A stretch of 64,000 bases of DNA from Trypanosoma brucei (GCA_000002445.1 CM000207.1:704001-768000); one strand, 5' to 3'; shown: positions 18,031 through 46,458, counted from the first letter of the stretch. The notes: generated by a model from the sequence alone, not told the origin. Program-made: numbers and translations.

Positions 18031-19116
18031 ATGGTCGTCAAACGCCGTGGAAATGGCCGGTTAGGCAAACCTCCGACAGATACTGGAGTGAGTGAGAACT
18101 CTACCGGTGGAACCCCACCCCCGGAGTCTGCTTCTCAACGTGGCGGGGCGAAACAAACTACGGTTGCTTCCGCGATCAAGCAGCCCGCTTCGATGCCCGA
18201 CGGCTCGTTGTCGCAGGATCGACGAAAGCGCCGCCGTAGGTTATCGGTGCCAGAGGAGGTGGCCCATGCCGTTGTGGAGGGGGAAGAAGCTACAGGTGCT
18301 GTAAGGGATGAAAGACTACCCGAAAATACTCAAGTTGTTGAACCTCAATTGAATGATCATGATGGTAAAGAGAGATACCCTCTGGGCGTTGTCCAGTTCC
18401 CAGAGGAGCAGCGCCCGTGGAGGAGCGCAAGGCGTAAAGCTGGGGTAGCTGAGGGAGGTAGTGACGAGGTTAACGCCGCACAGCTTCCTCCGACGGGCAA
18501 CGCTGTGCCGCAGAAACCAACTAGGCGTTTAGGTAGAGCATCTGCCCCTCCGATACCACCTGTCAGTACTGTTGAACATGATTTGCAGACAACTGGTGGA
18601 ACGTGTACGAGTGCTCCTATTGCGGGTGACCGCGCTTCCCGAACGTTTCAGGCGGCGGCGAGCCCCTCCGAAGATATTAAACAAAGGCCGCATAGAATTC
18701 CATTGATAATAGATAAGGGGCGTTTCAGTAAGCAAAAAGTCGAGGCTCCTCCCGGGACCGCAACCGTGGTGCCCATGGACACTGGAGAAAACCAGACTGG
18801 CGTTTGTGAAGCAAACTCCGCACCACCAACTTCCTGTTCCCACCGTGGCGCCCAGCGCTTGGGGCATGGCCAACCTGCTGATGGCACAAGTGGTGCTGTT
18901 GATAGTATAGAGGAGGGGCCCGGGCGCGGAATTGAGGAAGCCTCCGTGGACGCGCGACGTAGGAGGTTTATGCAGGTGCCGGTGAGCAGAATCTCGTTGT
19001 ATACACGGCTTGCCGAGGGGGGTTTGGATGCTGCCGACCGCCCATTTGTCACATGTGTGGTAAAACATGCCCAATCGTCTGTTTCCGCCTGGGTATCCGG
19101 GTTCTTGTCGCCTTGA
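18031..19116 (+). CDS. hypothetical protein (361 aa), copy 2
   Basis: Differs from copy 1 at 3 positions (R to Q, G to S, A to T). Confidence 0.45.
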   Translation: MVVKRRGNGRLGKPPTDTGVSENSTGGTPPPESASQRGGAKQTTVASAIKQPASMPDGSLSQDRRKRRRRLSVPEEVAHAVVEGEEATGAVRDERLPENTQVVEPQLNDHDGKERYPLGVVQFPEEQRPWRSARRKAGVAEGGSDEVNAAQLPPTGNAVPQKPTRRLGRASAPPIPPVSTVEHDLQTTGGTCTSAPIAGDRASRTFQAAASPSEDIKQRPHRIPLIIDKGRFSKQKVEAPPGTATVVPMDTGENQTGVCEANSAPPTSCSHRGAQRLGHGQPADGTSGAVDSIEEGPGRGIEEASVDARRRRFMQVPVSRISLYTRLAEGGLDAADRPFVTCVVKHAQSSVSAWVSGFLSP

Positions 19117-22527: not shown

Positions 22528-22749
22528 GAGCGCCCGCGCCTTCCTTTTATTTGTTCTCCATGGGATATTGCTGTTCTTTAACTTCCTAACTGTATGGTTT
22601 TCTGTCGCATGTGTCGTCACAGACGCGCATCATTTTTTATACGACTAGATATGCCGCGTTACAGAGACCTATCGATTGCCTGATTAAGTACTCTTGCAGG
22701 TGTTGCTTTGTCTTCTCCGCACTATTACTCATTCCCTTTTTCTTTACTG
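22296..22749 (+). repeat. partial third copy of the tandem unit (Pol X-like 3' fragment plus downstream UTR and polypyrimidine tract)
   Basis: Matches 9322 to 9775 and 15809 to 16262. Homology ends inside the pyrimidine tract ctttttctttactgatt, after which the BRAP2-like gene body begins. Confidence 0.75.
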
Positions 22750-22776
22750 ATTGGTGTTGATAGTATATTTTTTGAA

Positions 22777-24432
22777 ATGAGTGTCACCGGCTTCGGTGAT
22801 GTTGTTGTATCTTTTGATGCGGAAGGTGTTGTAGTTGTTGGGCTAACTTATGAGCGTTCAAATGCGACACAGTGGTTGCTGCTCCCGGAAATTCCCGTTG
22901 AAGTCCCTCTTGTTAAGGTTCTTCGTGATCTTGAGGAATCTGGTGCTTCTCGACAACGGTCACCTGGTCGAATGAGGGGAGAAGGAGTTAAAGGAGATGT
23001 TTGTTTGCCAGACAGTGAAGTTGGATCACCTTGTAACGCGTGCGGTGTTAATAACATTCGTAGTGATTGTTGCATTTCTGTTGCTCGTGTGGGGCACATT
23101 CCGGAACGAAATCGCGCATACTGTTTGCTTTTGGAGTTGTCATCTTCTTCTGATGCCGCTGATGTGCAAAGAGATCTGCTGCACGTCGAGTGGGCTAATG
23201 GGCCCTTGTGTGCACCGCAGTTTTTGCAGTCCGTCGGCCGTATAATGAGGGTGGAGCATGAAGGGCGTGATGCCGCATGCGTGAGCAACTGCGCGGGTTG
23301 GCGGACACAAGTGTCTACGGACAATGCGGAAGATGTTTGCCTACGTGTCCTTTGCAGTGTGTCGTGCGGTGTTGATGGGGCGTCATCTCGGCGGCAGTTG
23401 GAAAGTGAAAAGGAGATATCTAGCGTTGCGCTCCGGAGAGACGCTCCTCTAGCACCGATAGAAGAGTTTTGCCCCATCTGCCGTGAGGAAATCGCATCTG
23501 GAAGAACGTGCGTTGTTACTATGTGCACCCACGTCTTCCACCTTGTTTGCCTCATGAAGCACTTAGAAGATGTTAGTTCATATTGCCCTCTTTGTCGTTT
23601 TTCGATGTCGTCTCTTGAAACTAAGTGCAACGCGTGTGGAACGTGCCAGGACTTGTGGAGTTGTTTAGTTTGCGGTTGGGTGGGATGTGGTAAGGGGCGG
23701 CACGGACATAGCATACGGCACTTCCACAGCACAGGGCACTCGTGTGCCGTGCAGAATAGCACTTCACGCATATGGAACTATCGCGCCAGCACATTTCTCC
23801 ACCACCAACTAGCTATGGAATTGGGTTACGAAGACGACGCAAGGGCGGAGCGTGCTGCAGCGCAGGAGGAGGGCAGGTCGGCCCTCTCTGTTCGTCACAG
23901 CGGGGAAAAACCCAGGGTCAGTGCTTCATCCTATTGGCGCAGTAGGTGGTGGTGGGACGAAAAGGAAGAGGAAGCTGCACAAGAGCTCAATGGCGACTAT
24001 GTGCGGGAGTATTATCTCCGTGTAATGGAGGAACTCATGCAGGAACAGGCGGACTATTTTGAGGGGCGTACAATGGTGGAGGGAGAGAATGCGGCTGTAC
24101 CCATCGGGACATGGAAGAAGCTGCAAAGCGCAGAACGGCGTCAACGGCGTAGTCTTGCTTCGAGGTACATTGCTGGTTTGCGCCGTATTGCGCTACACAG
24201 CCAGATGGCCGTCAACAATTTTGTGAAGCAGGAGGTCTTATGGAGGGATTCGTTGCGTGAAGAGTTATTACTCCAATCGCATACCAACCAAGGCCTGAAT
24301 GCCAGGATATCGAGCTTAGGAGCGAATATCGACAAGGCCAGACAGCGTGGCGAACAGCAGGTTGCGTTAAAGGAAGAGGAGTTAAGGGATCTGCAGGGGA
24401 GACTTGAGAGTTTGATGAGGGATTTGGAGTGA
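22777..24432 (+). CDS. BRAP2/IMP-like E3 ubiquitin ligase (RING-H2 plus ZnF-UBP plus coiled coil)
   Basis: The RING-H2 is CPICREEIASGRTCVVTMCTHVFHLVCLMKHLEDVSSYCPLCR. The ZnF-UBP is CNACGTCQDLWSCLVCGWVGCGKGRHGHSIRHFHSTGHSCAVQNSTSRIWNY, which follows the BRAP2 pattern C..CG....LW.CL.CG..GCGR...HA..H...H. A long E/R/Q-rich coiled coil follows. The track ORF starts at TTG 22708; the first ATG is at 22777. Confidence 0.65.
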   Translation: MSVTGFGDVVVSFDAEGVVVVGLTYERSNATQWLLLPEIPVEVPLVKVLRDLEESGASRQRSPGRMRGEGVKGDVCLPDSEVGSPCNACGVNNIRSDCCISVARVGHIPERNRAYCLLLELSSSSDAADVQRDLLHVEWANGPLCAPQFLQSVGRIMRVEHEGRDAACVSNCAGWRTQVSTDNAEDVCLRVLCSVSCGVDGASSRRQLESEKEISSVALRRDAPLAPIEEFCPICREEIASGRTCVVTMCTHVFHLVCLMKHLEDVSSYCPLCRFSMSSLETKCNACGTCQDLWSCLVCGWVGCGKGRHGHSIRHFHSTGHSCAVQNSTSRIWNYRASTFLHHQLAMELGYEDDARAERAAAQEEGRSALSVRHSGEKPRVSASSYWRSRWWWDEKEEEAAQELNGDYVREYYLRVMEELMQEQADYFEGRTMVEGENAAVPIGTWKKLQSAERRQRRSLASRYIAGLRRIALHSQMAVNNFVKQEVLWRDSLREELLLQSHTNQGLNARISSLGANIDKARQRGEQQVALKEEELRDLQGRLESLMRDLE

Positions 24433-26060: not shown

Positions 26061-29000
26061 ATGGCATCGGAGGCAGCGTTATCGCTTCCTGCTGATGATG
26101 AAAAGGTGCAGGCGGATGCTGCTACTAATCACGGTACCACAACGCCCCCCTCTTCAGTAGAGACAGCACCAAGTACGGCCACTGGTGCTGTTGCACCGAC
26201 GGGTTCCAGCGAACGGGAAAGCAACGTAGTAATGCCCGCGGTTGCTGTTGTGCCCGCATTGGAAGCAAGTGAATGTCAGGTGCAAACAGAGCCGGGAGGG
26301 AACGACCCTATTACGTCTGGGGAGCTTTCGCTCGTTAATGACCATACGGCACCGCAAAAGCTGAATGCTGATGTGAAGTTGTTCTCGGGTGACAACCGGC
26401 CTTCAAAGTCGTTGGCTGCACCTTTCAGGGGCCCTAGTAATCGACCACAAGGAATTCCCCCTGGCGGCGGCACCCCTTTATGGCCCCCCAATGCTCCTCT
26501 TGGCCAAACTGTGATGTCGCTTCCGCATCCACCCATGCCTCCTCATCAACTTTATCAACCTCCTTTGATGATTCCAACACTGGTGCCGAATATGCATCCA
26601 CTGATGGCACCGTTCATCTCAGGCATGGCCCACGCCCCACAGCCGCCCCCGCCCCCCCCACCGCCGCCAGGGTTTGGACCCCCACCGGGTTCGTTTGGGC
26701 CACTGCCGTTTCCCGCAGCATTGAATGGACCTCTTGGCGCACCGCCTCCGCCCCTCATGATGCCCAATCCACCCGATTTGGCAGTTTTTCAACCGCGGTT
26801 CCCTGGTGACAAGATGGCGGCGTCGCAGTCATCCCAGGGTCCGGCGCTTTCGAAGCAAAAATCACATGTGTTGTCGGCTTCATCACCAAGTGCGAAGATA
26901 ATTGTTGGTAATGCTTCCCTTGCCGCACATGTGTCAAATGATCCGCCTAAATTCTCGTGCGTATTGCTTTCTGGAATATCAGCAGTTGGCAAAACAACAA
27001 TGGGAAGGGAGTTAGTTAACGAACTACAGGCAGATGGTTTAGGCTGGGTATTTTTTTCTGGTGCTGATTTCATTTCAGCTCCTACAACGAGGCGGGCCGT
27101 GTGGGAGACCACAAAGGAGGTATTTGATGCCCTGGAGAAGCAGCTGGAGAGGCTTCTTGACCAACAGAAGGAAAAGCGAGACTTGAAGGGTCTTGTCATC
27201 GACAAAAATGTGAAGAACGTAGAGGACATTTTTTATTTGGCGGCGCTGCTAAGATCGAAGCAGATCCCATTTGTTGGAATTGTAGGCATGGAAGCTGATG
27301 ATGATGAGGTGCTTCTGCAGCGCATGGGTGGCGAGCGGGAACTTCATGAAAAGCTAAAGTACCACCGTGTTATTCATTATAGGATCCGTAATTTAGCCAG
27401 GAAAGCGGCTATGTACCGAGAGATTGACGCCAACAAGCCGAGGCAAGAGGTTCTCAACGCATTGCGCACTAAGGTGCTGGGTTGTTGCGCCCAACCACCG
27501 CAGAATGGTATACTTTCTGATCTATACGTGAAATCGGCTTCCATTTCAATGGTTGATGACTATGCCGAATACTACACGGTTGTGACACAACTTTTCGACT
27601 TAATTAAACCATTGAATGGCTCTGCACACTTCCCCGGAACAACGAACTACGTTCCCTTGTCAACCCGTGATATGGCCGACAAGAATCGTGTGAGTGCAAT
27701 CAAGGAATCCTACGGTGCCCGTCGATTTAACAAAGGCACCCGCTACCTGCTCATGTATGATAAGGGGAAATTGTACCTGATTTCGACTCATCTTAGGGCG
27801 GTATTACGCCTGTCTCCCAAAGCGCTGTTAGGAGATAAGATGGCTTCGGTAACGTGCGCCGTGTTTGAGGGTGATTTAGTGAGAATAAGGGAGGACCCGC
27901 AGACCGAAATATTTCTTGTTTTTGACGTTCTCTTTTGGAATAATGCAGCGGATCCGGAGGGCAATGAGGTGACACAGATGAGTATGGAACAGCGTCATGC
28001 CCTTCTGAGCGCCCACCTATGCAGTGAAAGCAGTGCCTTCTCCCCTACGGGTACTGACTGCGTTGTGGCCTACCGAGCCACGGTAAAGCTTGAGGAGATT
28101 CCAAAACTTCTGGAGCCATGCGGTTTCCCAGGTGAGGGCATAATATTCCAACCCACTTCTTCGGTACACAATCTGAACAAAGTGTATTTGTGGCGACCCG
28201 CGAGCAGTATTTCAGTAGATTTTCGCATTGGTGCGTTGAGGGGGACACGAGAAGAGAGTGCTGTTTCGGAGAGCGGTGAATTGTGTGCGGATGCGGGCTC
28301 CCCAACGCTGAATGATTCTGCTAATCCCGGTGCCACCGCTGGCCAATCTCAGTCCCAACTGTCAAATAGTAGTAACCCGGCAGGGCAGAGCGCTGTGGGC
28401 TCCGGAGGGTCTAGCCATGTGCGTTGTAATGAAGGCGGTCCCACGCGTACCTTTGAGCTTGAAGTCTATGACAAGCAAGAAAAGGAATACACACAATTCG
28501 AAGACTGTACAGTGGATGTGAGGCACCCAGACGTGGTAGAGGGTTGCATATGCACTTGTGCGCTCGCGGACGAAAAGGGCCGTAAGTGGAGTTTCCAGAA
28601 TATCTGCTACGATGCGGTTCGTCCTGCATACAAGCGAGATGTAAGTTCACTGCTCGAGCACTCTATCATTCCAAAGTCCAAACTTCTTCAGTGGCTCGCT
28701 AGCGAAAAGATTACACCACCACTTCCAAGTGGTACAGTGCCACAAGCGGCGACTTCGAGTGCCCCACAGCAACAATTCTGGGAGGCGGTTTCGAATTCCA
28801 TTCGACAACCTCCACCGCATGCACCCCCGGCGTACGCCAGCGCCGTCCTCATGCAGCATGCTATGCCCCGACCAAACCCATCAGGGGCCCACGGCGGCGG
28901 CACAAACCTTGCAGCACTTGCAGAGGTAGTTGCCCCAACTGAAATTTCAAAGGGACACCAACCGGTGCTAACATCAACCTCTAGCGCGGGTGTGGGCTCT

Positions 29001-30005
29001 CCTCCCCGGGGGCTGTCAATTGGTCAACCACCAAGCTACAAGATGCATGGGCTTTTGCAGCAGGGGCTATCGACGTCACCGGGAACAAAGAAGGTTGTGG
29101 GAGTGGCACCCGACAACACTGTGGCTGCTGTTGGTGGCTCTTCCGCGGCGGGCGGCAGCGCAACGAACACGTATGTGGTGCAGTTGTTAACGTCAATGGT
29201 TCGCTCCGTACGCACTGTTCGTAAGGATGGGGTGGGCGACGAGTGCCAAAGTACAGCGGGTGCGACTCGACAGGAACAGCACCCTTCATGTGTCGATCGG
29301 TCAGACGGCGATCAGCACAGACGAGGGCACACTCGTTTTGATGATGTGAAGGATAGGAGGGAGCGGGGTCACGGGAAAATGCGGCGGGCCACCAGTGGTA
29401 CACCTGGTCGCTGTATGGGGTGTGGCAAGGACAAGCCAGCGGAGGAACTTCGCTTCCGCCCAAAGGACAATTTGTACTGCTATGACTGCTGGGCAGCGAA
29501 GGGTTGGGAAACATGCCGTGAGTGTGGAGAGTTTAGTAGGGGCTACCACGAACGCACGCGTGAGTGTGTGGGTGAGTTTTACTGCAACAACTGTTGGGAG
29601 AAGTTCAAGGAAGGAGACAACCAAAAAAAGGAAGGGAGGAAAGAAGATACCGAAAACCAACAAGGGGAGAGGAGGCGGCGAAGACCCAAGCGGCAAATTC
29701 AAACAGTAGAAGTGAAGGATGAAGGGGAGAGCAAAACTGCAAGCGATTTTACAGCGGAGGCAGCGGGGAGAGACGGTGCGGCGAAGCGGCGGGCGCGGCG
29801 TGGACAGAAGAACGACACCAAAGACCGTGCAGCTGTTGATATTCATGTTGGATGTGAGGAAGTTAGCGAAGGGAGGACCGCCGCGAACGACACGAATGCC
29901 GCGGAACAGGCACAGGAGGACGGCACGAAGTCAAATAAGAGGCATGGAGTTGAGAGTAGATCCAACAAAAGGCATAGGCGGAAGGAGGCAGTTAGGGGCG
30001 AATAA
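26061..30005 (+). CDS. large multidomain protein (1,314 aa): Pro-rich N-terminus, P-loop NTPase/kinase-like domain, capping-enzyme/ligase-like nucleotidyltransferase motifs with degenerate motif I, two Cys4 zinc knuckles, Arg/Lys/Glu-rich tail
   Basis: Walker A is LLSGISAVGKTTMG near nt 26975. Downstream motifs occur in the canonical order of covalent nucleotidyltransferases. Motif I would be NKGTRYLLMY, where KxDG has become K-G. Motif III is FEGDLV. Motif IV is GEGIIFQP. Motif V is KVYLWRPASSISVDF. The zinc knuckles are CMGCGK..(15)..YCYDCW and CRECGE..(15)..YCNNCWE near nt 29410 to 29600. The domain order (P-loop, then NTase) is that described for the kinetoplastid capping enzyme CE1. Confidence 0.55.
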   Translation: MASEAALSLPADDEKVQADAATNHGTTTPPSSVETAPSTATGAVAPTGSSERESNVVMPAVAVVPALEASECQVQTEPGGNDPITSGELSLVNDHTAPQKLNADVKLFSGDNRPSKSLAAPFRGPSNRPQGIPPGGGTPLWPPNAPLGQTVMSLPHPPMPPHQLYQPPLMIPTLVPNMHPLMAPFISGMAHAPQPPPPPPPPPGFGPPPGSFGPLPFPAALNGPLGAPPPPLMMPNPPDLAVFQPRFPGDKMAASQSSQGPALSKQKSHVLSASSPSAKIIVGNASLAAHVSNDPPKFSCVLLSGISAVGKTTMGRELVNELQADGLGWVFFSGADFISAPTTRRAVWETTKEVFDALEKQLERLLDQQKEKRDLKGLVIDKNVKNVEDIFYLAALLRSKQIPFVGIVGMEADDDEVLLQRMGGERELHEKLKYHRVIHYRIRNLARKAAMYREIDANKPRQEVLNALRTKVLGCCAQPPQNGILSDLYVKSASISMVDDYAEYYTVVTQLFDLIKPLNGSAHFPGTTNYVPLSTRDMADKNRVSAIKESYGARRFNKGTRYLLMYDKGKLYLISTHLRAVLRLSPKALLGDKMASVTCAVFEGDLVRIREDPQTEIFLVFDVLFWNNAADPEGNEVTQMSMEQRHALLSAHLCSESSAFSPTGTDCVVAYRATVKLEEIPKLLEPCGFPGEGIIFQPTSSVHNLNKVYLWRPASSISVDFRIGALRGTREESAVSESGELCADAGSPTLNDSANPGATAGQSQSQLSNSSNPAGQSAVGSGGSSHVRCNEGGPTRTFELEVYDKQEKEYTQFEDCTVDVRHPDVVEGCICTCALADEKGRKWSFQNICYDAVRPAYKRDVSSLLEHSIIPKSKLLQWLASEKITPPLPSGTVPQAATSSAPQQQFWEAVSNSIRQPPPHAPPAYASAVLMQHAMPRPNPSGAHGGGTNLAALAEVVAPTEISKGHQPVLTSTSSAGVGSPPRGLSIGQPPSYKMHGLLQQGLSTSPGTKKVVGVAPDNTVAAVGGSSAAGGSATNTYVVQLLTSMVRSVRTVRKDGVGDECQSTAGATRQEQHPSCVDRSDGDQHRRGHTRFDDVKDRRERGHGKMRRATSGTPGRCMGCGKDKPAEELRFRPKDNLYCYDCWAAKGWETCRECGEFSRGYHERTRECVGEFYCNNCWEKFKEGDNQKKEGRKEDTENQQGERRRRRPKRQIQTVEVKDEGESKTASDFTAEAAGRDGAAKRRARRGQKNDTKDRAAVDIHVGCEEVSEGRTAANDTNAAEQAQEDGTKSNKRHGVESRSNKRHRRKEAVRGE

Positions 30006-33000
30006 ACAAAAAGGTAGGGGTTCCACACTTAACTGTCACGGTTATGTGGCAGGTTTATGCAGCAAGCGGTGACATTTGCCAATTTGTAGTGTGTTTCCCT
30101 CCCCCTCCCCCTGCTGAGGGGGGAAGGGGGAGGGATCCGCACGTTTTTTTGCGCGCATAATACTTCCCTTATTTCTGTTAGTGGACGAATGTCGTTTGCT
30201 TTTCGTGTTTTCTCAACCTGCAGGAGGTGGTGTGAAAAAAAAGAATTTCATGAAAGAAGCCATGGGGTAGCCCGTTATGAAACTTCTCGGCCGCCTAAGG
30301 GGAAGACAAGGGGGAAGAGAGCTTGAGGAGGGAGGGATTTAGGATGAAAAATGTGTACCATTTATTGTACAGGGTGCATCTAAATGATTGACGCCGTTGT
30401 GCGTTAACTCATTACAACAGTTGTTATCTTTTCATTCCCCCCCCTCCCCACTGCATCTTCTTTTGTTTTCCTCGAAAGGGGGAGTTTTCTTTCTTTCTTT
30501 CTTTTCATTCAACTCTTCCGTGACTGCCGTTACTTTTGGACCGCGCATGTCTCCCTCTACATACTGGAGTAGCGAGCGATGTTTCCGTTCCATATTTCCT
30601 CAACCGAAGGATGAAAAAAAATAAAAATAAAAAGAAATGGGCGAAACGATGGTGTGGAATCGATCCTTGATGCGGAGGGGGAAAGTGTGTGTTTGTGTTT
30701 TTGTTTGTGTGGAAGGTAAGATCGAAGCAGAAAAAAGAATAAGAAGGATAAGAAGAAAAGGAAAAAAAAAAGGATTAACAACCGTGCAAGGGGAACGATG
30801 ACATCTGCTTTTTTTTTTTTTTTTAATTTTCTTCTTACGCATTTCATTTCATTTCATTTCACTTCTGTTGTTTTTTTTTGTTTTTTGTTGTTGTCGCTCC
30901 TGTTAGACATCATTCCTAAAATTGCGCGGTGAAGTTCTTACGGTGTGCCGGGAAGTATGAAGGAGGGAGAACGGAACAGAAAGCGAGCGATAAAGCGAGT
31001 GTTAAGGGAGTAAGAACAAAGGGAAAGGAAGAGAAACAGAGAAATGTATGGGAACAAATAAAATAAGAGAAAAGAAAGGAAAAACAAACAAACAAACAGA
31101 GAGATGAAAGGATGCAGAGGAAAAGGAGGGGGAAAAGTGTTCCCGTTGTTGCCTACTTCCTTTCCACAATCCTCTTCTCTTTCTTCCTTTCCTACGTGTA
31201 CTATTTTCCCAGTGATTCACTATCATTTTTTCTTTTTCTTTTTTTTTTTTAATGGTTATTTGTTTTTTGTTCATTCACAAGAAAAAAATCATTTTCTTGT
31301 TTTTTTTTCCGATGTTGTTGCTGTTGTTATTGTTATTGTTATTGTTATTGTTGTTGTTTTGTTTTCGAGACAATCCCTACGGAGAATTATCACACCTCTT
31401 TTTTTTCTTTTTTTTTTTGTATCATTTTTTTTGTTTTTACAACCTAAATTATTAAAGGAGTGTGTGTGTGTGTGTGTGTGGAAGGAGGAGAGGAGGAGAG
31501 GGGGAGAAAGAAATAAATAGAATGAAATGAAAAAGTGAAAAAGGGGTTTAATAACCTCTTGTTCTTCTTCGTTTTGTTTTTTTTTTTTACAGTTCATCTT
31601 TACAAGGCTGCAGGCAGGGGAGATGAAAAGAGGATGGGATGAAACCCCCTCCTCCAAAAAACAACGACAAAAACAACAACAAAGACAATAATAATAATAA
31701 TAACAATATCAGTAACAGTATCCAAAAGATGAAAAGTAAACAAAAAATAATAAGAATAATAAATGAAGCATCAAGAGGGGGAAAGAGCTACCGTGCGGTA
31801 AAGTATGGAATACGGTGTACGTTTCATGCAGGCGCGCACATGTACTTATATGTGTGTATATTTTTCCTCATCTTGTTTTTTTTGTTTGTTTTCCATTATC
31901 TTTTTTTTCTTTTTCTTTTTCTGTCTTTTTTCTGTTTTTTTTTTCTGTTTTTATGTTTATATTTGCGTTACTTTTTTTTTTCCCTCCTCCTCTTTTAGTT
32001 ATCCTGCAGTCCTTTTCCCGTCATTCATTCATTCTTTCATTCTTTTGTTCGTTTGTTTTTTCTTTGGCATCCCAGCAGCACTTGTTTATATATTTATAAA
32101 TGCCTGCGCGTTTGTGGTATTGTAGTGAGCAGCAAAAATAACAGAAATACAAAGGCATCGGTTGAATGAGTTTGTACTGCAACTGCGGCCGGAAAATTTT
32201 AAAAAAAAAAGAAAGAAAAAGAAGAAGAAAAAAAAAAGAAAGAAAAAGGAGGGGATTGTGTGATGCAGGCAGTTTAAAAGCAACGGAAGGGACACGGGCG
32301 CTTCGGTTGCGAGGTGTAGCGACTCACATCACATTATTCGAACCAAAAAGAAAAAATAAAATAAAAGACAAAATAAAAGAAAAGAAAAGGAAAAAAAAAG
32401 TGTATCGGTTTACATATTTCTGTTTTTTTTTCCTTTTCTTTTATTTTGGTTTGGTCGTGATTGATATGTTTCGTTTCACGTTGTTATTGTTCCCTCGTAC
32501 TTCCTTTCTTTTTTGTTTTTTTGTTTTTTTTTTCCACTCCCTTCACTCCCTTCCCTCCCTTCCCTCCTCCTTTGGGTTTATTTCCGTTTTCGTTTTTTTT
32601 TCTCCTTTTCCCACGCACGCAGTTGTTATTTCCCCTCTTTTTTTTTTTATTTACTTCATTTTTTTTTTGTGTATTTGTGCAACCTCCGCTGTGTTTGTGA
32701 GGACGTATCGCTTTCAGTTGATTTTTTGTCCCCTTCTTTTCTTCTCTTTTTCTTTTTTTCTTTTTTGTTATACCGTCGTGTCGTTTTTTTTCCTTTTTTT
32801 CGTTTATTTTGCTGTTCTTTTTTGCGTTTTGTGTTTTGTTTTTTATATTTTCATGTTTTTATGTTGTGAGGCATATGACAGTCGCGGTCGGCCGAACGCT
32901 AAAAAAAAGAAAAACTGATCGCCAATAATCTTACATCAACAAGGCGTTTTTCTTTGTGTTTCTTCTGTGATTTTTTTTTTGTTCCCTCTTTTCACTCACT

Positions 33001-33319
33001 CCATTCCCATTCGTTTCAACTTCATTTTGTTTATTTTTGTGTTTCGTTTTTGTTTATTTTATTTTGTTTTTTTTTGTTGTTGTTGTTTCCTTCATTCGTG
33101 CTTCCTGTTGGTTTTTTTCCCCATATTTTATGGTATATGAAGTGTCAGAAGCAGTAAAGAACGGAAAAGAAATGAGAAATGGATCGCGTAGCAGCAGCGG
33201 CATGTAAGAATAAATAATAACGATGATGGTGAGGAGGAAAAGTAAGAGGATAATAACGTCAGTAAATAACCACAAATAACAAAATGATAATAATGTTTAT
33301 TATTATTACTATTACTTTT

Positions 33320-33397
33320 GTTGTTTTTGTTGTTACTATTATTACTATTATTATTCAACAACAATAATAATAGTAATAATAGTAACAACAAAAACAA
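33320..33397. repeat. perfect inverted repeat: 36-bp arms with a 7-nt spacer
   Basis: Left arm 33320 to 33355 is gttgtttttgttgttactattattactattattatt. Right arm 33363 to 33397 is aataataatagtaataatagtaacaacaaaaacaac, the exact reverse complement. Spacer is caacaac. The + strand changes from T-rich to A/G-rich around this point. Confidence 0.8.
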
Positions 33398-35608
33398 CGA
33401 AAACAGTATTGATGGATATAATAATATTGGGTCTAGATAATATGTGAGTGTGAAGAATGTAAGGGGGAGATTACGCGTATGTTTACATCAAAATAAAACA
33501 AAGTGACGGAAGCACAAAAGGACAAAAAATGAAGAAGAAGAAGAAGAAAAGAAATGAAAAAAAAAGAAAGAAAGGAGGAAAGAGGGAAGAGGAGGAGGGG
33601 AGACGTACCGGTATAAAAATATGAAAACAGACACGCGCGCACGCACATATATCTTTTATATATATGTCTTTTATATATTTATATATATATATACATATAT
33701 TCATATATACATATATTCATATATACATATATACATATATATATATATATTGTATATATTTAAACGAATACATGTGTTTTTTTCTTATGTTATTTTATCT
33801 ATTTAGGTGCGGGTAAGTGTACATGTTTTTTTCTTCTTTATTGTTTATTGTTTATTTGCTTTATTATTATTATTATTATGTTGAAACGATAGGGGGAGGA
33901 GGAGGGATGAGAAGGTTACTTTTCTGTCATCCATTTTTTCTCTTTATCTTTTTTTTTCTTTTAGTTTGTTTTTACTTTTTGATCCCTCCGTCACTGCGGC
34001 ATGTCCGGATGTACTCCCATTTTTCTTTTTCTTTTTTCTTTTTTGTTTCGTTTTATCTTACTCATCCGCCTCCAACCGTGCATTTTTTTTTTCCGTTTCA
34101 CTTAGTTTTGTGTTCTCCAGTTCTTTTTTTTTCTTTTTTAATTCACTTCAATTTTATTATTTTGCTTCACTTGCCTACTTTTTTTTTTCTTTTTTTTTCG
34201 CTTGTTATGTTTCCGTCATTTTATCATTGCGCTGCCATTGCGTTTTCTTTTTTTCTTTTTTTTTTTCCACACCGTTTCTCCTTTTGTTTCTTTTCTTTTT
34301 AAAAAAAAAAAAATTAGAAAAAAAAATATTGCGTTCCCCTCACTCATTTTCCTATCCCTTTTAAAACATACATACATACATACATACATGCGCACGTATA
34401 TGTATATGTAATAATACAAATATATGTGTGTACAACTTATGAGCATTATGGGAGGAAAGGAAGAGGAAGGGGAGTGAAAGGAGGATAGTAAAAAAAAAAA
34501 AAAAGAAAAATGAATAATTCAAGGAATAAAATAAAAAATAAAAAAATAAAGAAAAACGAATAGTGAAAACATGTTTAAATTATGATTGTTGTTATTATGT
34601 TTTTTTTTGATATTGATATTTTACACAGTGGAGTGTTGACTGAAAGGTTTCCAAACCTCCTATTTCCCTTATTTACTATCACATACATATCACATACGCG
34701 GGCTTTTCACTCTACCTCCCCTTTCCCTCCATTACGCAAGAAATAAATAAATTAAAAAGAAAAAAAGAAAAAAAAAAAGAAACGAAGAAAAAAAAACCGA
34801 AGAGTGATCGAAGGACAAAGTATAGTTTATTATTATTATTATTATCATTTTGTTTTCAAGTTTTTAATAGCAGAAAGAAACGAAAAAGGCAGAAAAGGAA
34901 AGGAGAATCACGAGTGAAATGATTGAGAAATGTTAACGGGTGGTGAGTGGTGTGCGCGTTTTGTCGTATTTGTGCATGTGAGTTGACTGGTGGAAAAAAA
35001 AAAGGAAAGATTTAAATAGGCCATTTGTTTTACGCAGAGGATGGGAAACTAAATAAAACCAGACGAACGGCTGAAGCCGTTTTTTTTTCTTTCATTTTCT
35101 TTCATTTTTTTTTTTTTGGTGAAGACGCAAACAGCAGCAGAACACGCAAGTATGAAATTGAAGGCGCCGCTCGCGTTAAGTGGGGTTTTCATGGAGGGCA
35201 AATTCGGTTGCTGCAAAGCATAGCCTTTTAGCAGCACGTTAAGCTCAGTGGAAAACTTACATGTGTGTTCGTGTTGGGGGCGTGTTTTTGTTTTTAAGTG
35301 GGAATGGTATTTTTGAAAACAAAAACAAAAACAAACGAACAAACAAACAAACTCAAATGAGTGCTCTTGTACACGCCGATCTGGCGGCTGTGCGCAAGGG
35401 GATACAAACGTAAAGAAAGAAGTTTATTATATTTTAAAGACAGGAAGAAAGTAAAAAGAAAAGAAAAACGCAGTAATTCCTCCATTGTAGTTTACGCAGG
35501 CGCGCCTCACCGCTCTTGTTTGTGCCATTTCCCCTTCTACAAAGAGACATGTACACATATGCCGCGTAACATAACTGCTGCATGAAGTGTGTGAAATGCC
35601 GTATATTT

Positions 35609-35700
35609 CCACTCTTTTCTTTCATTTTATTATCTGATTGTACCTCCTTTCCTTTCCCTTCCCCCTCCCTTTTGCTCTTTCTTTGTTAATTCATTAATAG
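35609..35700 (+). promoter_or_regulatory. polypyrimidine tract plus AG upstream of ACS1 (putative trans-splice acceptor)
   Basis: A C/T-rich run (ccactcttttctttcattttattatctgattgtacctcctttcctttcccttccccctcccttttgctctttctttgtt...) ends in AG, about 225 nt upstream of the ATG. Confidence 0.35.
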
Positions 35701-35925
35701 GTAAGTTGCCGAATATTATTTGAACTACATTTTATAGACTTGACTAAACTGTTCAACAACCAGGAACAATAACAAACGCCCAACGACAGGAGGGGTATCC
35801 CAACAATACAAGGGGGAGGGTAAGGGGGGGGGAAAAAAACTTACTGAGGAGATCGTTTCAACAAACCAGGTAAACGAGAAGTGACGATAATTAAATATTA
35901 ATAGTAGTGTGGCAGTTGTGTTTCG

Positions 35926-38022
35926 ATGGGAATGTACGTCACTAAGCTTCTCTCCCTCTGGAGTCACTGGTTTGAGGTGGATGACGAGGTGATCATTGCG
36001 AGACAAAAGTTTGGGCCACTTGCTCACATTTGTGGACCAGCGGAGGGCGAAAACTGTTCACCTGTTTACCGCTCCATAGGAGTCACAGATGAGGAGCAGG
36101 CGCGCATTACGAGGGAATGGTATTACGGCGAGCACTTTCTGAAACAGTTGGAGCAAACATGCACGAGCAGAAGAGATACTCTGGCAGTTGCTTACCGCAC
36201 AATTAACAAGGTTGAAAAGGAGTGGCGCGAGGACCATAATGGGAAGAGGCGCGAATGGCAGGTTACACATCTCAACGATCCGGTCTACATGACATATGGT
36301 GAATTATGGGAGAACTCTGTGGCCTTTGGAAAGGGTTTAAGGGAGTATGGAGCAAAGGAAGGGGACCGTGTTGCCATTTACGAGGATACGCGATGGGAGT
36401 GGCTTGCCTCTGCTATTGGGGTTTGGACGCAGTTGATGGTTACTGTAACAGTTTACGCTAACCTCTGCCGGGAGGGGCTGATGCACGCGCTCAAGGAGAC
36501 GGAGTGTGCCGCTATTATTTGCAACGGCCAAAACATAAAGGATCTCATTACCTTACTGAAGGAGGTCAATCTCACCAACACCACGTTGGTCTATCTCGAC
36601 TCTCTACCAGATGGGTTAAATGATGAAGGCATGCGCTTAATACCATGGAAACAGGTGCTGGAGACGGGAATGAAGAGTAACCTGGGCTATACCATTCCTG
36701 GAAATTGTGACACAACGGCTTTGATCATGTACACAAGTGGCACAGTGGCGGCACCCAAGGGTGTCATGCACACCTTTGGTTCTCTCACCGCCAGTAAAAA
36801 TGGGCTGGCGGACCGCTTCCTTGAGTGTATTGGACCCAAGGAGGAGGGTGAGACATATGTATCTTACCTCCCCCTTGCTCACATTTTGGAGTTTATTGCT
36901 GATGTGGTGATGCTTAGCCGCGGTACCTTGGTGTGTTTTGGTTCGCCACGAACACTCACGGATGATACGGCGCGACCACGAGGTGACTTGAAGGAGTTTA
37001 AGCCAGTGTTTATCGTTGGAGTCCCACGGATCTTTGAGACAATACGGAAGGTTGTGGAAAGTCGGCTACCACCTGTGGGTAGTTTTAAGAGGACCCTCTT
37101 TGATACTGCCTATGCTGACCGACTCCGTGCTCTCAAGGAGGGGAAAGATACGCCTTTCTGGAATGAAAAGGTTTTTAAGGTCCCACGCGACATGTTCGGT
37201 GGCAGGCTGCGTGGAGTGGTATGTGGTGGCGCACCTCTCGCTGACAGGACACAAGAGTTCATGCGGGTTGTCTTCGGCCTTCCGCTGGGACAAGGCTACG
37301 GATTGACAGAAACGTGCTGCAACGGAAGCATACAACGTTTGGGTGAGTTATATCCATCAGTTGGTCAACTCCTGAAAGGGGTTGAAGGGAGGCTATTGGA
37401 TACAGATGAGTACAAGCACACTGATAAGCCATTCCCGCGAGGGGAGCTCTGCCTTCGTGGGTCGTTTATGTTCAAGGGCTACTACAAGCAGGAGGCCATG
37501 AGCAAAGAAGTGTTGATTCCAGGGGGTTGGTTCCGCACGGGGGACGTTGTGGAAATTGGTGAAGATAATGCCCTGCGAGTCATTGGCCGTGTTAAGGCAC
37601 TGGTGAAGAACCTACTCGGAGAATACATTCAGCTGGAGTACCTGGAAGTGATTTACTCACAGCATCCATTGTCTGCCCCTAATGGCGTCTGCATTCTTGT
37701 AAATCAGCGGCGGGCATACATATGTGCCCTTGTAATCACCGACGAGGAAAGGGCTAAGAAGTTTGCCCAAGAAAATGGAATTGGTGGAACGTGGCCCGAG
37801 ATACTTAAGGACCCGACTTTCCACCAACGTGCCGCCAAGTCGTTGTCGAATTTCGGCGCTTCAATTGGTAGAAAACCCTTTGAACTGCTCCGTCAGGTAC
37901 GTGTGATCGCCGATGAGTGGACGGCAAAGAATGGGATGCTCACTGTCTCGATGAAAATCCGTCGCAACAAGGTGGAAGAAAGGTACGGCGATGTCATTGA
38001 ACAACTTTTCAAGTATGAGTAA
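35926..38022 (+). CDS. ACS1: long-chain fatty acyl-CoA synthetase (AMP-forming), most divergent member of the array
   Basis: The AMP-binding motif is MYTSGTVAAPKGVMHT. YLPLAHILEF, GYGLTE and the FRTGD and RVKALVKN C-terminal signature motifs of acyl-CoA synthetases are present. It is about 50% identical by eye to the three downstream paralogs. The numbering follows the known tandem ACS1 to ACS4 order in T. brucei and is an inference. Confidence 0.8.
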   Translation: MGMYVTKLLSLWSHWFEVDDEVIIARQKFGPLAHICGPAEGENCSPVYRSIGVTDEEQARITREWYYGEHFLKQLEQTCTSRRDTLAVAYRTINKVEKEWREDHNGKRREWQVTHLNDPVYMTYGELWENSVAFGKGLREYGAKEGDRVAIYEDTRWEWLASAIGVWTQLMVTVTVYANLCREGLMHALKETECAAIICNGQNIKDLITLLKEVNLTNTTLVYLDSLPDGLNDEGMRLIPWKQVLETGMKSNLGYTIPGNCDTTALIMYTSGTVAAPKGVMHTFGSLTASKNGLADRFLECIGPKEEGETYVSYLPLAHILEFIADVVMLSRGTLVCFGSPRTLTDDTARPRGDLKEFKPVFIVGVPRIFETIRKVVESRLPPVGSFKRTLFDTAYADRLRALKEGKDTPFWNEKVFKVPRDMFGGRLRGVVCGGAPLADRTQEFMRVVFGLPLGQGYGLTETCCNGSIQRLGELYPSVGQLLKGVEGRLLDTDEYKHTDKPFPRGELCLRGSFMFKGYYKQEAMSKEVLIPGGWFRTGDVVEIGEDNALRVIGRVKALVKNLLGEYIQLEYLEVIYSQHPLSAPNGVCILVNQRRAYICALVITDEERAKKFAQENGIGGTWPEILKDPTFHQRAAKSLSNFGASIGRKPFELLRQVRVIADEWTAKNGMLTVSMKIRRNKVEERYGDVIEQLFKYE

Positions 38023-39435: not shown

Positions 39436-41562
39436 ATGAACACCGCTTCTGCGCTGAACGAAATCGAGGTGGCGGTCCTCCAGCTTATGGATGAGGCCAA
39501 CAGCCGAGAATCGGCACCAAACGAAGACATTGTGCAGCTTCGGAGCAAAGGCTCACAGAACGAGGCGATTCCACAGACAGAAACGGAGAATATGTCGGCC
39601 ATCTACCGTCGTGCCGGAGTCAGTGGCGAAGAGCACACACGACTCTGTCGAGAGTGGTACTACGGTGTGAACATGCCACAGAAGTTCATGGCAATATGCA
39701 AGAAAGGGGGAAGTCGCAGGGCTTTCGCGTACCGGGTTCTGTCAAACATATCGAAAGAAGTGCTAAGGGACCAAAATGGGCTTGAACGTTCATACGATAT
39801 AACATACTTTAAGGAAACGTGTTATATTAACTACCGTGTCCTCTGGGAAAATATCGAGTCGTTTGGGCGAGGTCTTGTGGAGTTGGGTATTTCACCAAAC
39901 TCCCGAGTCGCCATATACGAGGAGACGCGGTGGGAGTGGTTGGCAACAATTTACGGTATCTGGTCGCAGAATATGGTTGCCACCACAGTGTACGCCAATC
40001 TTGGGGAAGATGCGCTCGCGTATGCCCTCCGGGAAACAGGATCCCGTGCAATTATATGCAACGCAACAAATGTGCCAACACTGGTCCGGTTGGTGCAGAG
40101 CAACCGCATTCCGCCCTTGGTGATCATTTACATTGGTCAGCTACCTCCGGATACAAAAAGCACACATTGCCGCATCATCTCTTGGCTTCATGTCGTGGAC
40201 AATGGTCGCCTCTCAGATGAACCACTTCGAATCCCCACTGACAATGACCAAGTTGCTTTCATCATGTATACGAGTGGTACGACGGGGGACCCCAAAGGTG
40301 TCATTCACACACATGGCTCACTGATCTCGGGTGTTACTGCTTGTGCCGACTACGTGAATGAACTGATTGGTCCTTACGAAGAGGGTGAGTCGTACTGCGC
40401 TTACCTGCCTCTTGCCCACATATTTGAATTTGGTGTCGTCAACATCTTTCTTGCTCGCGGTTCTTTTGTTGGGTTTGGAAACCCCAGAACACTTCTCGAC
40501 ACGTACACTCGTCCACACGGTGATTACAGGGAGTACAAACCGGTTTTCACAATTGGCGTGCCGCGAGTGTACGACACGATAAAGAAAACGGTCGAGTCAC
40601 AGCTGGCACCCCGAGGGACACTACAGCGCCGTATATTCGAACACGCCTTCCAAACGAGACTTCGAGCCCTCAAGAAGGGTGAGGAGACCCCGTACTGGAA
40701 CAGGTTAATTTTTTCTCCATTTCGGTCCATGCTTGGAGGTAAGATGAAAACGATGCTTTCCGCCGGAGGGCCCCTCAGCGCACCAACGCAAACATTTCTT
40801 CATGTTGTATTTGGCATCATGCCACAAGGTTGGGGCCTCACGGAGACGGTGTGTGTTGGCACAAAGCAAGTCGCAGGTGATATGGAACCGGCCGCTGCAG
40901 GCAAGCAAGAGCGCACATGTGAAATGCGACTACTGGACGTGGAAGGATACAAGCACACCGATGAGCCCGATCCTCGTGGGGAAATTCTTCTGCGTGGTCC
41001 ATTCCTCTTCAAAGGGTACTACAAGCAGGAAGAACTAACCAAGGAGGTGCTTGATGAAGATGGTTGGTTTCATACGGGTGACGTTGGCAGCATCGGCCCC
41101 AATGGAACCCTTCGCATCATTGGCCGCGTGAAGGCCTTGGCAAAGAATGTTCTTGGAGAGTATGTTGCCATGGAAGCTTTGGAATCCATGTATGCACACA
41201 ACTCGCTGAGCATGCCCAACGGTGTTTGTGTCCTCGTGCATCCTGACAGACCGTACATTTGTGCGCTTGTTCTTACTGATGAAGCGAAGGTTGTTGCGTT
41301 CACGAGGGAGCATGGATTGAAAGGTAAATACCCTGAAGTTCTGCAGGACCCCGAGTTTCAGAAGAAGGCTACAGCATCATTTCAGGAGACGGCTCGTGCA
41401 TCTGATCGACAGAAGTTTGAGATTGTACGTCACGTACGCCTACTGAGTGATGAGTGGACTCCTGAAAATGGTGTGCTGACGGCCGCAGGCAAACTGAAGC
41501 GACGCGTCATCGATGAGAAGTACACTGATACTATTGTGTCACTTTTCGTGGAGGAGTGCTGA
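39436..41562 (+). CDS. ACS2: long-chain fatty acyl-CoA synthetase
   Basis: 708 aa with MYTSGTTGDPKGVIHT, YLPLAHIFEF and GWGLTE. Its last ~210 codons and two internal patches are identical to ACS3 and ACS4. Confidence 0.85.
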   Translation: MNTASALNEIEVAVLQLMDEANSRESAPNEDIVQLRSKGSQNEAIPQTETENMSAIYRRAGVSGEEHTRLCREWYYGVNMPQKFMAICKKGGSRRAFAYRVLSNISKEVLRDQNGLERSYDITYFKETCYINYRVLWENIESFGRGLVELGISPNSRVAIYEETRWEWLATIYGIWSQNMVATTVYANLGEDALAYALRETGSRAIICNATNVPTLVRLVQSNRIPPLVIIYIGQLPPDTKSTHCRIISWLHVVDNGRLSDEPLRIPTDNDQVAFIMYTSGTTGDPKGVIHTHGSLISGVTACADYVNELIGPYEEGESYCAYLPLAHIFEFGVVNIFLARGSFVGFGNPRTLLDTYTRPHGDYREYKPVFTIGVPRVYDTIKKTVESQLAPRGTLQRRIFEHAFQTRLRALKKGEETPYWNRLIFSPFRSMLGGKMKTMLSAGGPLSAPTQTFLHVVFGIMPQGWGLTETVCVGTKQVAGDMEPAAAGKQERTCEMRLLDVEGYKHTDEPDPRGEILLRGPFLFKGYYKQEELTKEVLDEDGWFHTGDVGSIGPNGTLRIIGRVKALAKNVLGEYVAMEALESMYAHNSLSMPNGVCVLVHPDRPYICALVLTDEAKVVAFTREHGLKGKYPEVLQDPEFQKKATASFQETARASDRQKFEIVRHVRLLSDEWTPENGVLTAAGKLKRRVIDEKYTDTIVSLFVEEC

Positions 41563-42701: not shown

Positions 42702-42959
42702 CCATACCAAAAGACTGTAAAGCACAACCGCTCTGCAACAAGCACTAAGGGAAGAAAGACAGGTGATTGTGGATACGGTTGAACCTGAAGGGAAGGGAAG
42801 CAATCGGGACAGCAGTGGTGCGCGCCACGTGTGTTTGTGGGAGGAAGGCTTGTTAAGGTTGGCGAAATCATCTTAAAAGCCACCATTCACACCCAGTAAG
42901 TATTGTACTTCATAGGAAGCCTTTGCTTTTAAGATCCGATATTGAGAAGTGGGGGCACC

Positions 42960-46200: not shown

Positions 46201-46458
46201 CCATACCAAAAGACTGTAAAGCACAACCGCTCTGCAACAAGCACTAAGGGAAGAAAGACAGGTGATTGTGGATACGGTTGAACCTGAAGGGAAGGGAAGC
46301 AATCGGGACAGCAGTGGTGCGCGCCACGTGTGTTTGTGGGAGGAAGGCTTGTTAAGGTTGGCGAAATCATCTTAAAAGCCACCATTCACACCCAGTAAGT
46401 ATTGTACTTCATAGGAAGCCTTTGCTTTTAAGATCCGATATTGAGAAGTGGGGGCACC

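Follow-up and report, generated by a model that had tools for sequence, protein, structure and literature searches.

A decayed guanylyltransferase-like module behind a conserved P-loop domain in a Trypanosoma brucei zinc finger protein, very probably HYP2

In covalent nucleotidyltransferases, the lysine of motif I is the site to which the nucleoside monophosphate (NMP) becomes attached, and basic residues of motifs V and VI contact the triphosphate. Proteins with a guanylyltransferase fold that do not catalyze this reaction are also known: the guanylyltransferase-like domain of snurportin-1 is a non-catalytic binder of the m3G cap, and that of CMTR1 is likewise non-catalytic. In kinetoplastids, 'capping enzyme homologs' such as G5-IP and G1-IP are by now a known kind of protein, and PAM2 motifs were reported in both of them and in CE1 (PMC11754739). 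Here, we focus on a protein encoded at positions 26061..30005 (+) of a 64,000-nucleotide stretch of Trypanosoma brucei DNA (GCA_000002445.1 CM000207.1:704001-768000; the whole of this stretch is referred to as the window). Its product is very probably TbHYP2, a gene already named and genetically characterized. We describe its adenylate-kinase-like P-loop domain and the capping-type module that follows, in which the catalytic residues have been lost.

The open reading frame (ORF) is complete and encodes 1314 amino acids with a computed mass of 142,126 Da. Over its full length it is 100% identical to XP_803708.1 / EAN76489.1 / Q38FD1 of T. brucei brucei TREU927, annotated as 'hypothetical protein, conserved', and the proteins of T. 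b. gambiense and T. equiperdum share a 90% cluster with it. Orthologs throughout Kinetoplastea and published proteomics rule out a chance ORF. Tb927.9.4080 was listed as a '142.1 kDa Zn finger protein' (PMC3493610), which equals the mass computed here, and the domains of HYP2 were given as 'AAA+ and adenylation domains' (PMC4403954), in agreement with the architecture of the ORF. Interpolation of UniProt accessions against published gene numbers (PMC9585242) places Q38FD1 near Tb927.9.4000-4100. Since mass, zinc finger, domain description and position on chromosome 9 agree, and the array of ORFs downstream fits ACS1-4 (see below), we identify the gene with high confidence as TbHYP2 (Tb927.9.4080). 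The original prediction, made from the DNA sequence alone, had described a giant protein that could not be assigned to a family by eye; in fact, it had a name and a phenotype.

Knock-down of HYP2 leads to 'inducible monomorphism' and delayed commitment to stumpy forms in mice, and its depletion by RNA interference (RNAi) prevents stumpy formation (PMC6842576; PMC10589647). When tethered to a reporter, HYP2 raises expression (PMC4055773). It is present in the mRNA-bound proteome and localizes to cytoplasmic puncta (PMC6299225). Its association with DRBD3 is resistant to RNase (PMC3493610), and its interaction with MKT1 was found both by yeast two-hybrid and by tandem affinity purification (PMC3985637). 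HYP2 is a validated stumpy-induction factor and an mRNA-bound post-transcriptional activator, and it belongs to the small set of effectors with genetic validation in the quorum-sensing pathway, through which trypanosome transmission and virulence are controlled. The literature found still calls it a 'hypothetical protein' and, loosely, a possible polynucleotide ligase. The latter goes back to the table of a 2015 review, in which a polynucleotide (RNA) ligase was suggested from the 'adenylation domain' (PMC4403954, Table 1). Beyond this remark, HYP2 was not assigned to the capping-enzyme family in the literature found.

A guanylyltransferase fold with altered catalytic motifs

The central part of the protein, encoded like its other parts on the + strand, holds a nucleotidyltransferase (NTase) domain of the guanylyltransferase type (residues about 535-724; 27663..28232), recognized by profile, AlphaFold2 (AF2) model and Foldseek. 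It is followed, after a disordered insertion, by an OB-fold domain of the capping-enzyme/ligase type (residues about 795-885; 28443..28715), recognized by profile, model and Pfam. Searches with the T. brucei sequence alone were weak, phmmer against the PDB giving the human capping-enzyme guanylyltransferase at E=0.21 only, and the assignment was therefore settled by the orthologs. In two of these, PF01331 (mRNA_cap_enzyme) exceeds its gathering threshold (38.0 and 31.8 bits vs 29.6), and the OB-domain family PF03919 (mRNA_cap_C) is weakly matched in orthologs. A profile of residues 515-885 built from 12 sequences matched the human (E=1.1e-8) and mouse (1.4e-8) capping enzymes over a span covering motifs I-V. 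Fungal enzymes were matched as well, namely those of Candida, Saccharomyces and S. pombe, two via the OB domain and motif VI, and the profile matched nothing else in the PDB. The AF2 model of T. brucei residues 515-885 (26 homologs) has a mean predicted local distance difference test (pLDDT) score of 84.2 and a predicted template modeling (pTM) score of 0.77, with only residues 725-794 disordered. When this model was compared with the PDB by Foldseek, the first 15 matches were capping-enzyme guanylyltransferases (E 1.4e-14 to 6.7e-8), DNA ligases appearing at about 1e-7 or weaker. Profiles and predicted structure together confirm an NTase-OB arrangement with guanylyltransferase topology for residues 515-885, as the original prediction had proposed, and no unrelated fold emerged for residues 540-760. 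The term 'guanylyltransferase-like' fits HYP2 better than 'ligase', which is the less apt annotation.

The insertion between the two domains (residues 725-794; 28233..28442) is a feature in its own right. It comprises 70 residues rich in Ser, Gly, Ala and Gln, lies exactly at the NTase-OB hinge, and has a pLDDT below 50 in both models that we built. Its length is highly variable among trypanosomatid orthologs, and it is almost absent from the bodonid-like P0017.

The order of the nucleotidyltransferase motifs is preserved in about 30 orthologs, and the motif strings are therefore not a product of chance. The decisive one is motif I. It had been read as NKGTRYLLMY (residues 557-566), with the lysine of KxDG kept and the aspartate missing; the string is present, but the register was wrong. 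When aligned with the human capping enzyme and the orthologs, the T. brucei 'R-F-N-K-G-T-R-Y' pairs with the human 'W-K-A-D-G-T-R-Y' and with 'R-K-V-D-G' of an ortholog, and on this basis Phe556 replaces the lysine nucleophile, with Lys558 falling at the aspartate position (RRFNKG, 27720-27737). Lys558 is itself unconserved, being Ser in T. theileri, Asp in T. cruzi marinkellei and Ser in T. vivax. All three species have Leu at the nucleophile position, and no lysine is found there in any of the four Trypanosoma species sampled. Lys558 was also considered as a relocated nucleophile and rejected, as it is unconserved in other Trypanosoma.

Across the 34 sequences of the HYP2 family, the nucleophile position is occupied by Lys in 21, Leu in 6, Phe in 3 (the T. 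brucei group), Ile in 2 and Arg in 2, while among the further aligned proteins that this profile brought up, 103 of 108 have Lys. The lysine is found in Leishmania, Leptomonas, Angomonas and Phytomonas and in most members of a bodonid-like clade, and the whole of KxDG is retained in Leishmaniinae and bodonid-like orthologs. Arg stands in Neobodo designis P0027 (RRRSDG) and in P0014, a member of the Leishmaniinae/Phytomonas/Angomonas clade. Trypanosoma species outside the T. brucei group have Leu, and a clade made up of P0025/28/31/32 has Leu or Ile. A neighbor-joining (NJ) tree, which carries no branch support, puts this last clade apart from Trypanosoma. Taken with that caution, the tree suggests that the catalytic lysine was lost at least twice.

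The remaining motifs are recognizable and altered to different degrees. Motif III is FEGDLV (602-607), with EGD in place of DGE and its position in the order kept, and motif IIIa is kept in T. brucei as FLVFDVLF. Motif IV, GEGIIFQP (691-698), has EG in place of DG, the aspartate being Glu in T. brucei. Motif V reads KVYLWRP (707-713), with L-W-R in T. brucei, followed by SVDF at 718-721. These assignments had been made by eye, and the profile aligns all three with the corresponding motifs of the human capping enzyme. The two lysines of motif V (K-W-K) are found in none of the HYP2 family (0/34 and 0/34, with x-W-R or x-W-Q instead) vs 82/95 and 87/95 of the other proteins. For motif VI, 'RxRxDK', HYP2 orthologs have 'RIRYDV/L', with DK changed to DV, DL or DA and the lysine present in no member. 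T. brucei reads WSFQNICYDAV against the canonical WxFxRxRxDK, both arginines having been replaced, by Asn and Cys, and is the most decayed member of the family. Because the lysines of motifs I, V and VI have been lost, no self-guanylylation is expected of the T. brucei guanylyltransferase domain, and we regard it as very unlikely. The original prediction had left the choice between a diverged or inactive paralog and a distinct RNA-end-modifying enzyme; with Phe at the nucleophile position and an unconserved Lys558, the former, as an inactive paralog, is now firmly favored.

The domain that precedes this module is of a different character. Residues 291-515 (26931..27605) form a P-loop domain resembling adenylate kinase (AK) by Pfam, Foldseek and profile, with a Walker A motif, GISAVGKTT, at residues 305-313 (26973-26999), upstream of the NTase domain that begins at about 535. 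The same order, P-loop directly before guanylyltransferase module, is found in every ortholog and in relatives from Papus and Diplonema. The T. brucei sequence itself has only weak P-loop matches in Pfam (AAA_18, AAA_17), and with a profile of residues 278-515 the adenylate kinases of the PDB are weakly matched. An AF2 model of residues 275-885 (17 sequences) was used for the fold comparison. In it, the P-loop domain is well predicted and dominates the search, and nearly all of the top 50 Foldseek matches for this domain are adenylate or UMP-CMP kinases (E 6e-6 to 3e-4), with O-phosphoseryl-tRNA kinase in addition.

When the P-loop domain is aligned with adenylate kinases, the invariant Asp381 ('GLVIDKN') coincides with the Asp of the AK 'GFILDGYPR', the invariant IDK thus contributing D381-K382 at this position, and the invariant Arg421, at the entry to the LID, coincides with the LID Arg. 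The Arg of the NMP-binding GxPR is absent; an invariant 'DKN' stands opposite the AK 'DGYPR', and the acceptor site therefore differs. Of 25 orthologs, 24 retain Walker A GK[ST], IDK and the LID Arg. Mean column identity reaches 75% in this domain, higher than anywhere else in the protein, compared to 54% for the NTase-OB region. Such conservation argues for retained binding of nucleoside triphosphate (NTP) or retained phosphotransfer, with an acceptor that would not be AMP. The P-loop of HYP2 probably still binds or hydrolyzes NTP.

Termini and zinc finger

More than half of HYP2 is of low complexity. The N-terminal region (residues 1-290; 26061..26930), identified by composition and ortholog alignment, consists of Pro to 20%, in line with the proline-rich N-terminus of about 290 residues that had been noticed initially. 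It aligns poorly among species and is probably disordered. Many full-length orthologs carry a canonical PAM2 motif (LNANAKSFTP) near the N-terminus, and Pfam PAM2 matches three of them. In a scan with a position-specific scoring matrix (PSSM), orthologs score 38-42 bits vs 7.6 bits for the best match in T. brucei, QKLNADVKLFSGD (residues 99-111; 26355..26393), a score that is not significant. This string is possibly the remnant of a PAM2 motif, which binds poly(A)-binding protein (PABP); we do not claim a functional PAM2 in T. brucei.

Downstream of the OB domain, composition and alignment delimit a low-complexity linker rich in Ser, Gly, Ala and Pro (residues 886-1115; 28716..29405), which leads to a double Cys4 zinc finger (residues 1116-1182; 29406..29606) defined by its cysteine pattern and alignment. 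The pattern is C-x2-C-x18-C-x2-C-W-x8-C-x2-C-x19-C-x2-C-W, with cysteines at 1118/1121/1140/1143 and 1152/1155/1175/1178, and all eight are invariant across 19 family members. The twin C-x2-C...C-x2-C-W modules of the original prediction are indeed two Cys4 fingers, while the x15 spacing given for them and the name 'knuckle' do not hold, the spacers being x18 and x19 and the arrangement not CCHC. No Pfam family matches the double finger, and the best profile matches in the PDB, FYVE and LIM, were not significant (E >= 0.04). A CCHC zinc knuckle, a LIM domain and a FYVE domain were accordingly rejected as descriptions of it.

The protein ends in a basic charged tail (residues 1183-1314; 29607..30002), recognized by composition, with an isoelectric point (pI) of about 9.8. 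The tail had been described as RS/RE-like. Within its 124 residues from 1191 to 1314, which are rich in R, E, A, G and K, RR occurs seven times and KR four times, RS and SR once each and RE not at all, and we reject an RS domain. Many HYP2 orthologs (P0005, P0007, P0009, P0013, P0014, P0016, P0025, P0031 and P0032) end in CaaX-like tetrapeptides, among them CRQQ, CLAQ, CRAQ, CSQQ, CATQ, CSTQ and CLVQ. By their sequence, these ends suggest C-terminal prenylation in the orthologs concerned. T. brucei, which ends in …AVRGE (29994-30002), T. theileri and T. vivax have no such end.

Binding, switching or catalysis

We consider it rather probable that HYP2 combines a pseudo-guanylyltransferase module that binds the cap or 5' end, a P-loop that acts as a switch or retains an activity, and connecting termini, with activation of the bound mRNAs as the net result. 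HYP2 would then be a cytoplasmic messenger ribonucleoprotein (mRNP) component on the chassis of a euglenozoan '(re)capping enzyme', in which an AK-like P-loop precedes NTase and OB domains. The guanylyltransferase module, dead with its fold conserved, would bind guanine nucleotide, cap or RNA 5' end without reacting; going by analogy with other non-catalytic members of the fold, its most likely role toward mRNA 5' ends is binding and not modification. The P-loop would provide NTP-dependent activity or switching and may phosphorylate the 5' end. Links to PABP, DRBD3, MKT1 and RNA may be made by the disordered N-terminus (ancestrally PABP-binding through PAM2), by the zinc fingers and by the basic tail. 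As an outcome, bound mRNAs would be stabilized or translationally activated, as required for stumpy formation by quorum sensing in bloodstream forms. Several points weigh against this reading. Cap binding by HYP2 is inferred solely by analogy of fold with snurportin-1 and CMTR1, and the literature found contains no biochemical assay of HYP2 activity or of its binding to cap or nucleotide. The KxDG of Leishmaniinae and bodonid-like orthologs leaves room for nucleotidyl transfer of a residual or altered kind within the family. Furthermore, the first model of the whole core is of moderate quality (pLDDT 64 overall), the likeness of the P-loop to adenylate kinases is weak in sequence (best E 0.0065), and the PAM2 match in T. 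brucei is not significant, its 7.6 bits being reached by 197 of 2000 shuffles.

The main rival differs from this reading in emphasis alone. It makes HYP2 an RNA 5'-kinase or NTPase switch whose dead guanylyltransferase presents the 5' end, converting 5'-monophosphate RNA (pRNA) to 5'-diphosphate RNA (ppRNA) for another capping enzyme. We regard it as possible, though clearly the less probable account. No other part of the protein is as conserved as the P-loop, in which Walker A, Asp381 and Arg421 remain, and this speaks for such a role, as does the replacement of the AK GxPR by an invariant DKN, which suggests another phosphate acceptor. The equivalent P-loop domain of TbCe1 is also reported to be an RNA 5'-kinase (PMC11417388). 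However, no likeness to characterized polynucleotide kinases was detected, the top structural matches being NMP kinases, and the HYP2 P-loop profile matched the one CE1-like protein compared, P0057, over part of the domain only (E 1.6e-7). If, instead, both globular domains were inert relics, HYP2 would serve purely as a disordered scaffold, its zinc fingers and low-complexity regions holding DRBD3, MKT1, PABP and mRNA together. The extent of low complexity would fit this, the documented function is one of tethering and protein interaction, and the lysine was lost in two separate clades of the unsupported NJ tree, with more K-to-R changes elsewhere. We find it improbable all the same, as the NTP-binding residues of the P-loop are near-invariant throughout Kinetoplastea, which would be difficult to account for if no nucleotide were bound, and the NTase-OB fold is itself well conserved and confidently modeled.

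Active catalysis fares worse. As a cytoplasmic recapping enzyme like TbCe1, HYP2 would phosphorylate pRNA with its P-loop and transfer GMP with its NTase domain via, for example, Lys558. The domain order is that of TbCe1-type proteins, the P-loop residues are intact, a lysine lies two residues off the canonical position and many orthologs have KxDG. This possibility is nevertheless quite unlikely: Lys558 is Ser, Asp or Ser in other Trypanosoma, with Phe or Leu at the nucleophile position genus-wide; the motif V lysines seen in about 90% of other guanylyltransferases are missing, as is that of motif VI; and T. brucei has in addition lost the Asp of motif IV and the arginines of motif VI. Least probable of all, and by our estimate very nearly negligible, is an ATP-dependent polynucleotide (RNA) ligase. 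Apart from the suggestion in the review table, it can draw on the NTase-OB fold that DNA and RNA ligases share, on their occurrence among the structural matches and on a weak PF01068 match in one ortholog. Ligases rank under the best guanylyltransferases in all profile and fold searches, and T. brucei has no motif I lysine that could be adenylated.

Returning to the pseudo-guanylyltransferase reading, a more specific form of it may be put forward quite tentatively. HYP2 could be a 5'-end 'reader' derived from a recapping enzyme, whose pocket senses a particular state of the 5' end, such as ppRNA, cap-4, or an end that is decapped or unmethylated, and whose P-loop couples this to NTP. Equally tentative is the further proposal that such a reader would selectively stabilize or activate the transcripts of stumpy commitment, and that the loss of the lysine in Trypanosoma, and not in Leishmania, would mark the transition from enzyme to reader. 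If true, this would tie quorum sensing directly to the chemistry of mRNA 5' ends.

As far as the literature found shows, several of these results are new. HYP2 has firmly a guanylyltransferase fold and not that of a ligase; the register of motif I is corrected, and the nucleophile has disappeared from Trypanosoma, while Leishmaniinae and most bodonid-like orthologs still have it; and all members of the family have lost the lysines of motifs V and VI, next to a P-loop that is strictly conserved and a zinc finger common to other capping-like proteins. This makes the family a lineage-resolved case of an enzyme turning into a pseudoenzyme, with the lysine of motif I lost in one lineage and kept in others, and those of motifs V and VI lost in all. 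Placing HYP2 with the P-loop/capping-enzyme paralogs CE1, G5-IP and G1-IP, its guanylyltransferase dead and its P-loop intact, also yields hypotheses on cap or 5'-end binding and on NTP dependence that can be tested with mutants. No existing knowledge is overturned by these results.

Neighboring genes and known relatives

Downstream of HYP2, the window contains four tandem ORFs of about 700 amino acids on the + strand (35926..38022, 39436..41562, 42942..45068 and 46441..48567), of which the two that were scanned, at 35926 and 39436, encode AMP-binding enzymes. The array fits the fatty acyl-CoA synthetase genes ACS1-4, which are clustered on chromosome 9 of T. brucei. Tb927.9.4190 / 4200 / 4210 were described as ACS1-3 (PMC6299225), and the fourth gene of the array would be ACS4. 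Between HYP2 and the first acyl-CoA synthetase lies an AT-rich stretch (30001..36000) with a GC content of 0.32-0.38 vs about 0.50 elsewhere. Within it, a 250-aa ORF (32166..32918) with an F-rich low-complexity translation and no Pfam match is probably not a gene. The upstream neighbor (22708..24432, +) has RING-H2 and zf-UBP domains in a BRAP2/IMP-like architecture; it was listed from a TTG, and its true start is probably an internal ATG. Further upstream, two ORFs of 361 amino acids (11544..12629 and 18031..19116, +), about 6.5 kb apart and 99% identical (358/361), represent a recent segmental duplication, and the copy at 18031 has no Pfam match. The ORF at 53331..55013 (+) carries PRP3 and Prp3_C domains and likely encodes the PRP3 homolog of the U4/U6 small nuclear ribonucleoprotein (snRNP).

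Relatives of HYP2 show that its parts also occur in other combinations. With the HYP2 finger profile, this type of finger was also recovered from Papus P0037, P0039, P0041, P0054, P0068 (Strigomonas) and P0090. P0037 (Papus ankaliazontas, 1177 aa) joins an AK-like P-loop, a guanylyltransferase, a HYP2-type double finger and a cap N7-methyltransferase, and P0102 (Diplonema japonicum, 905 aa) joins P-loop, guanylyltransferase, OB and N7-methyltransferase domains with canonical motifs. P0042 (889 aa) also has an AK-like P-loop, a guanylyltransferase (with OB) and a cap N7-methyltransferase in one polypeptide. From their domain content, proteins of the P0037/P0102/P0042 type possibly represent an ancestral 'all-in-one' recapping enzyme of Euglenozoa. 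The prokinetoplastid P0039 (661 aa) and P0041 (Papus, 788 aa) have a P-loop (E about 1e-20 to HYP2), a guanylyltransferase-like domain, a CCCH finger and one HYP2-type finger, and lack the canonical lysine of motif I, with Ser or Val in its place (RQSKDG, RQVRDG). As a query, P0039 retrieved prokinetoplastid sequences only, and the link of these two proteins to G5-IP is therefore one of architecture alone.

Compared to the canonical guanylyltransferases, such as human RNGTT, S. pombe Pce1 and the Chlorella virus PBCV-1 enzyme, HYP2 shares the NTase and OB folds and the order of motifs I to VI. It differs from them in its disordered hinge insertion and in having lost the residues that act in catalysis in motifs I, V and VI. 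The m3G-cap domain of snurportin-1 and the guanylyltransferase-like domain of CMTR1 resemble HYP2 as non-catalytic guanylyltransferase folds, their sequence relation to it being at the superfamily level only. TbCe1 has a mass of about 67 kDa. Like HYP2, it consists of an N-terminal P-loop followed by a capping NTase-OB module, and both proteins are cytoplasmic and tied to kinetoplastid mRNA 5' ends. A PAM2 is also reported for TbCe1 (PMC11754739), and HYP2 orthologs have one as well. By description, TbCe1 is an active kinase and guanylyltransferase, whereas the 142-kDa HYP2 has no motif I lysine in Trypanosoma and no motif V and VI lysines in any member of the family, and it has the double Cys4 finger, long P-rich N-terminus and basic tail in addition. 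TbG5-IP (Tb927.11.14590), a 'capping enzyme homolog' bound to EIF4G5/EIF4E6 and thus associated with cap-binding complexes, is likewise described as having NTP-hydrolase and guanylyltransferase domains, a location in cytoplasmic puncta and a PAM2. It is smaller (about 70 kDa), and for HYP2 no EIF4G partner has been reported. Proteins of the TbG1-IP (Tb927.11.6720) type, in which a guanylyltransferase-like domain is joined to a cap N7-methyltransferase, are connected to HYP2 through its finger, which is found in methyltransferase-containing relatives (P0054, P0068, P0090 and P0037), although HYP2 itself has no methyltransferase domain in a Pfam scan. Taken together, HYP2 appears to be a branch of an old euglenozoan family in which a P-loop is fused to a capping enzyme; CE1, G5-IP and G1-IP, placed here by their published descriptions, would be other branches.

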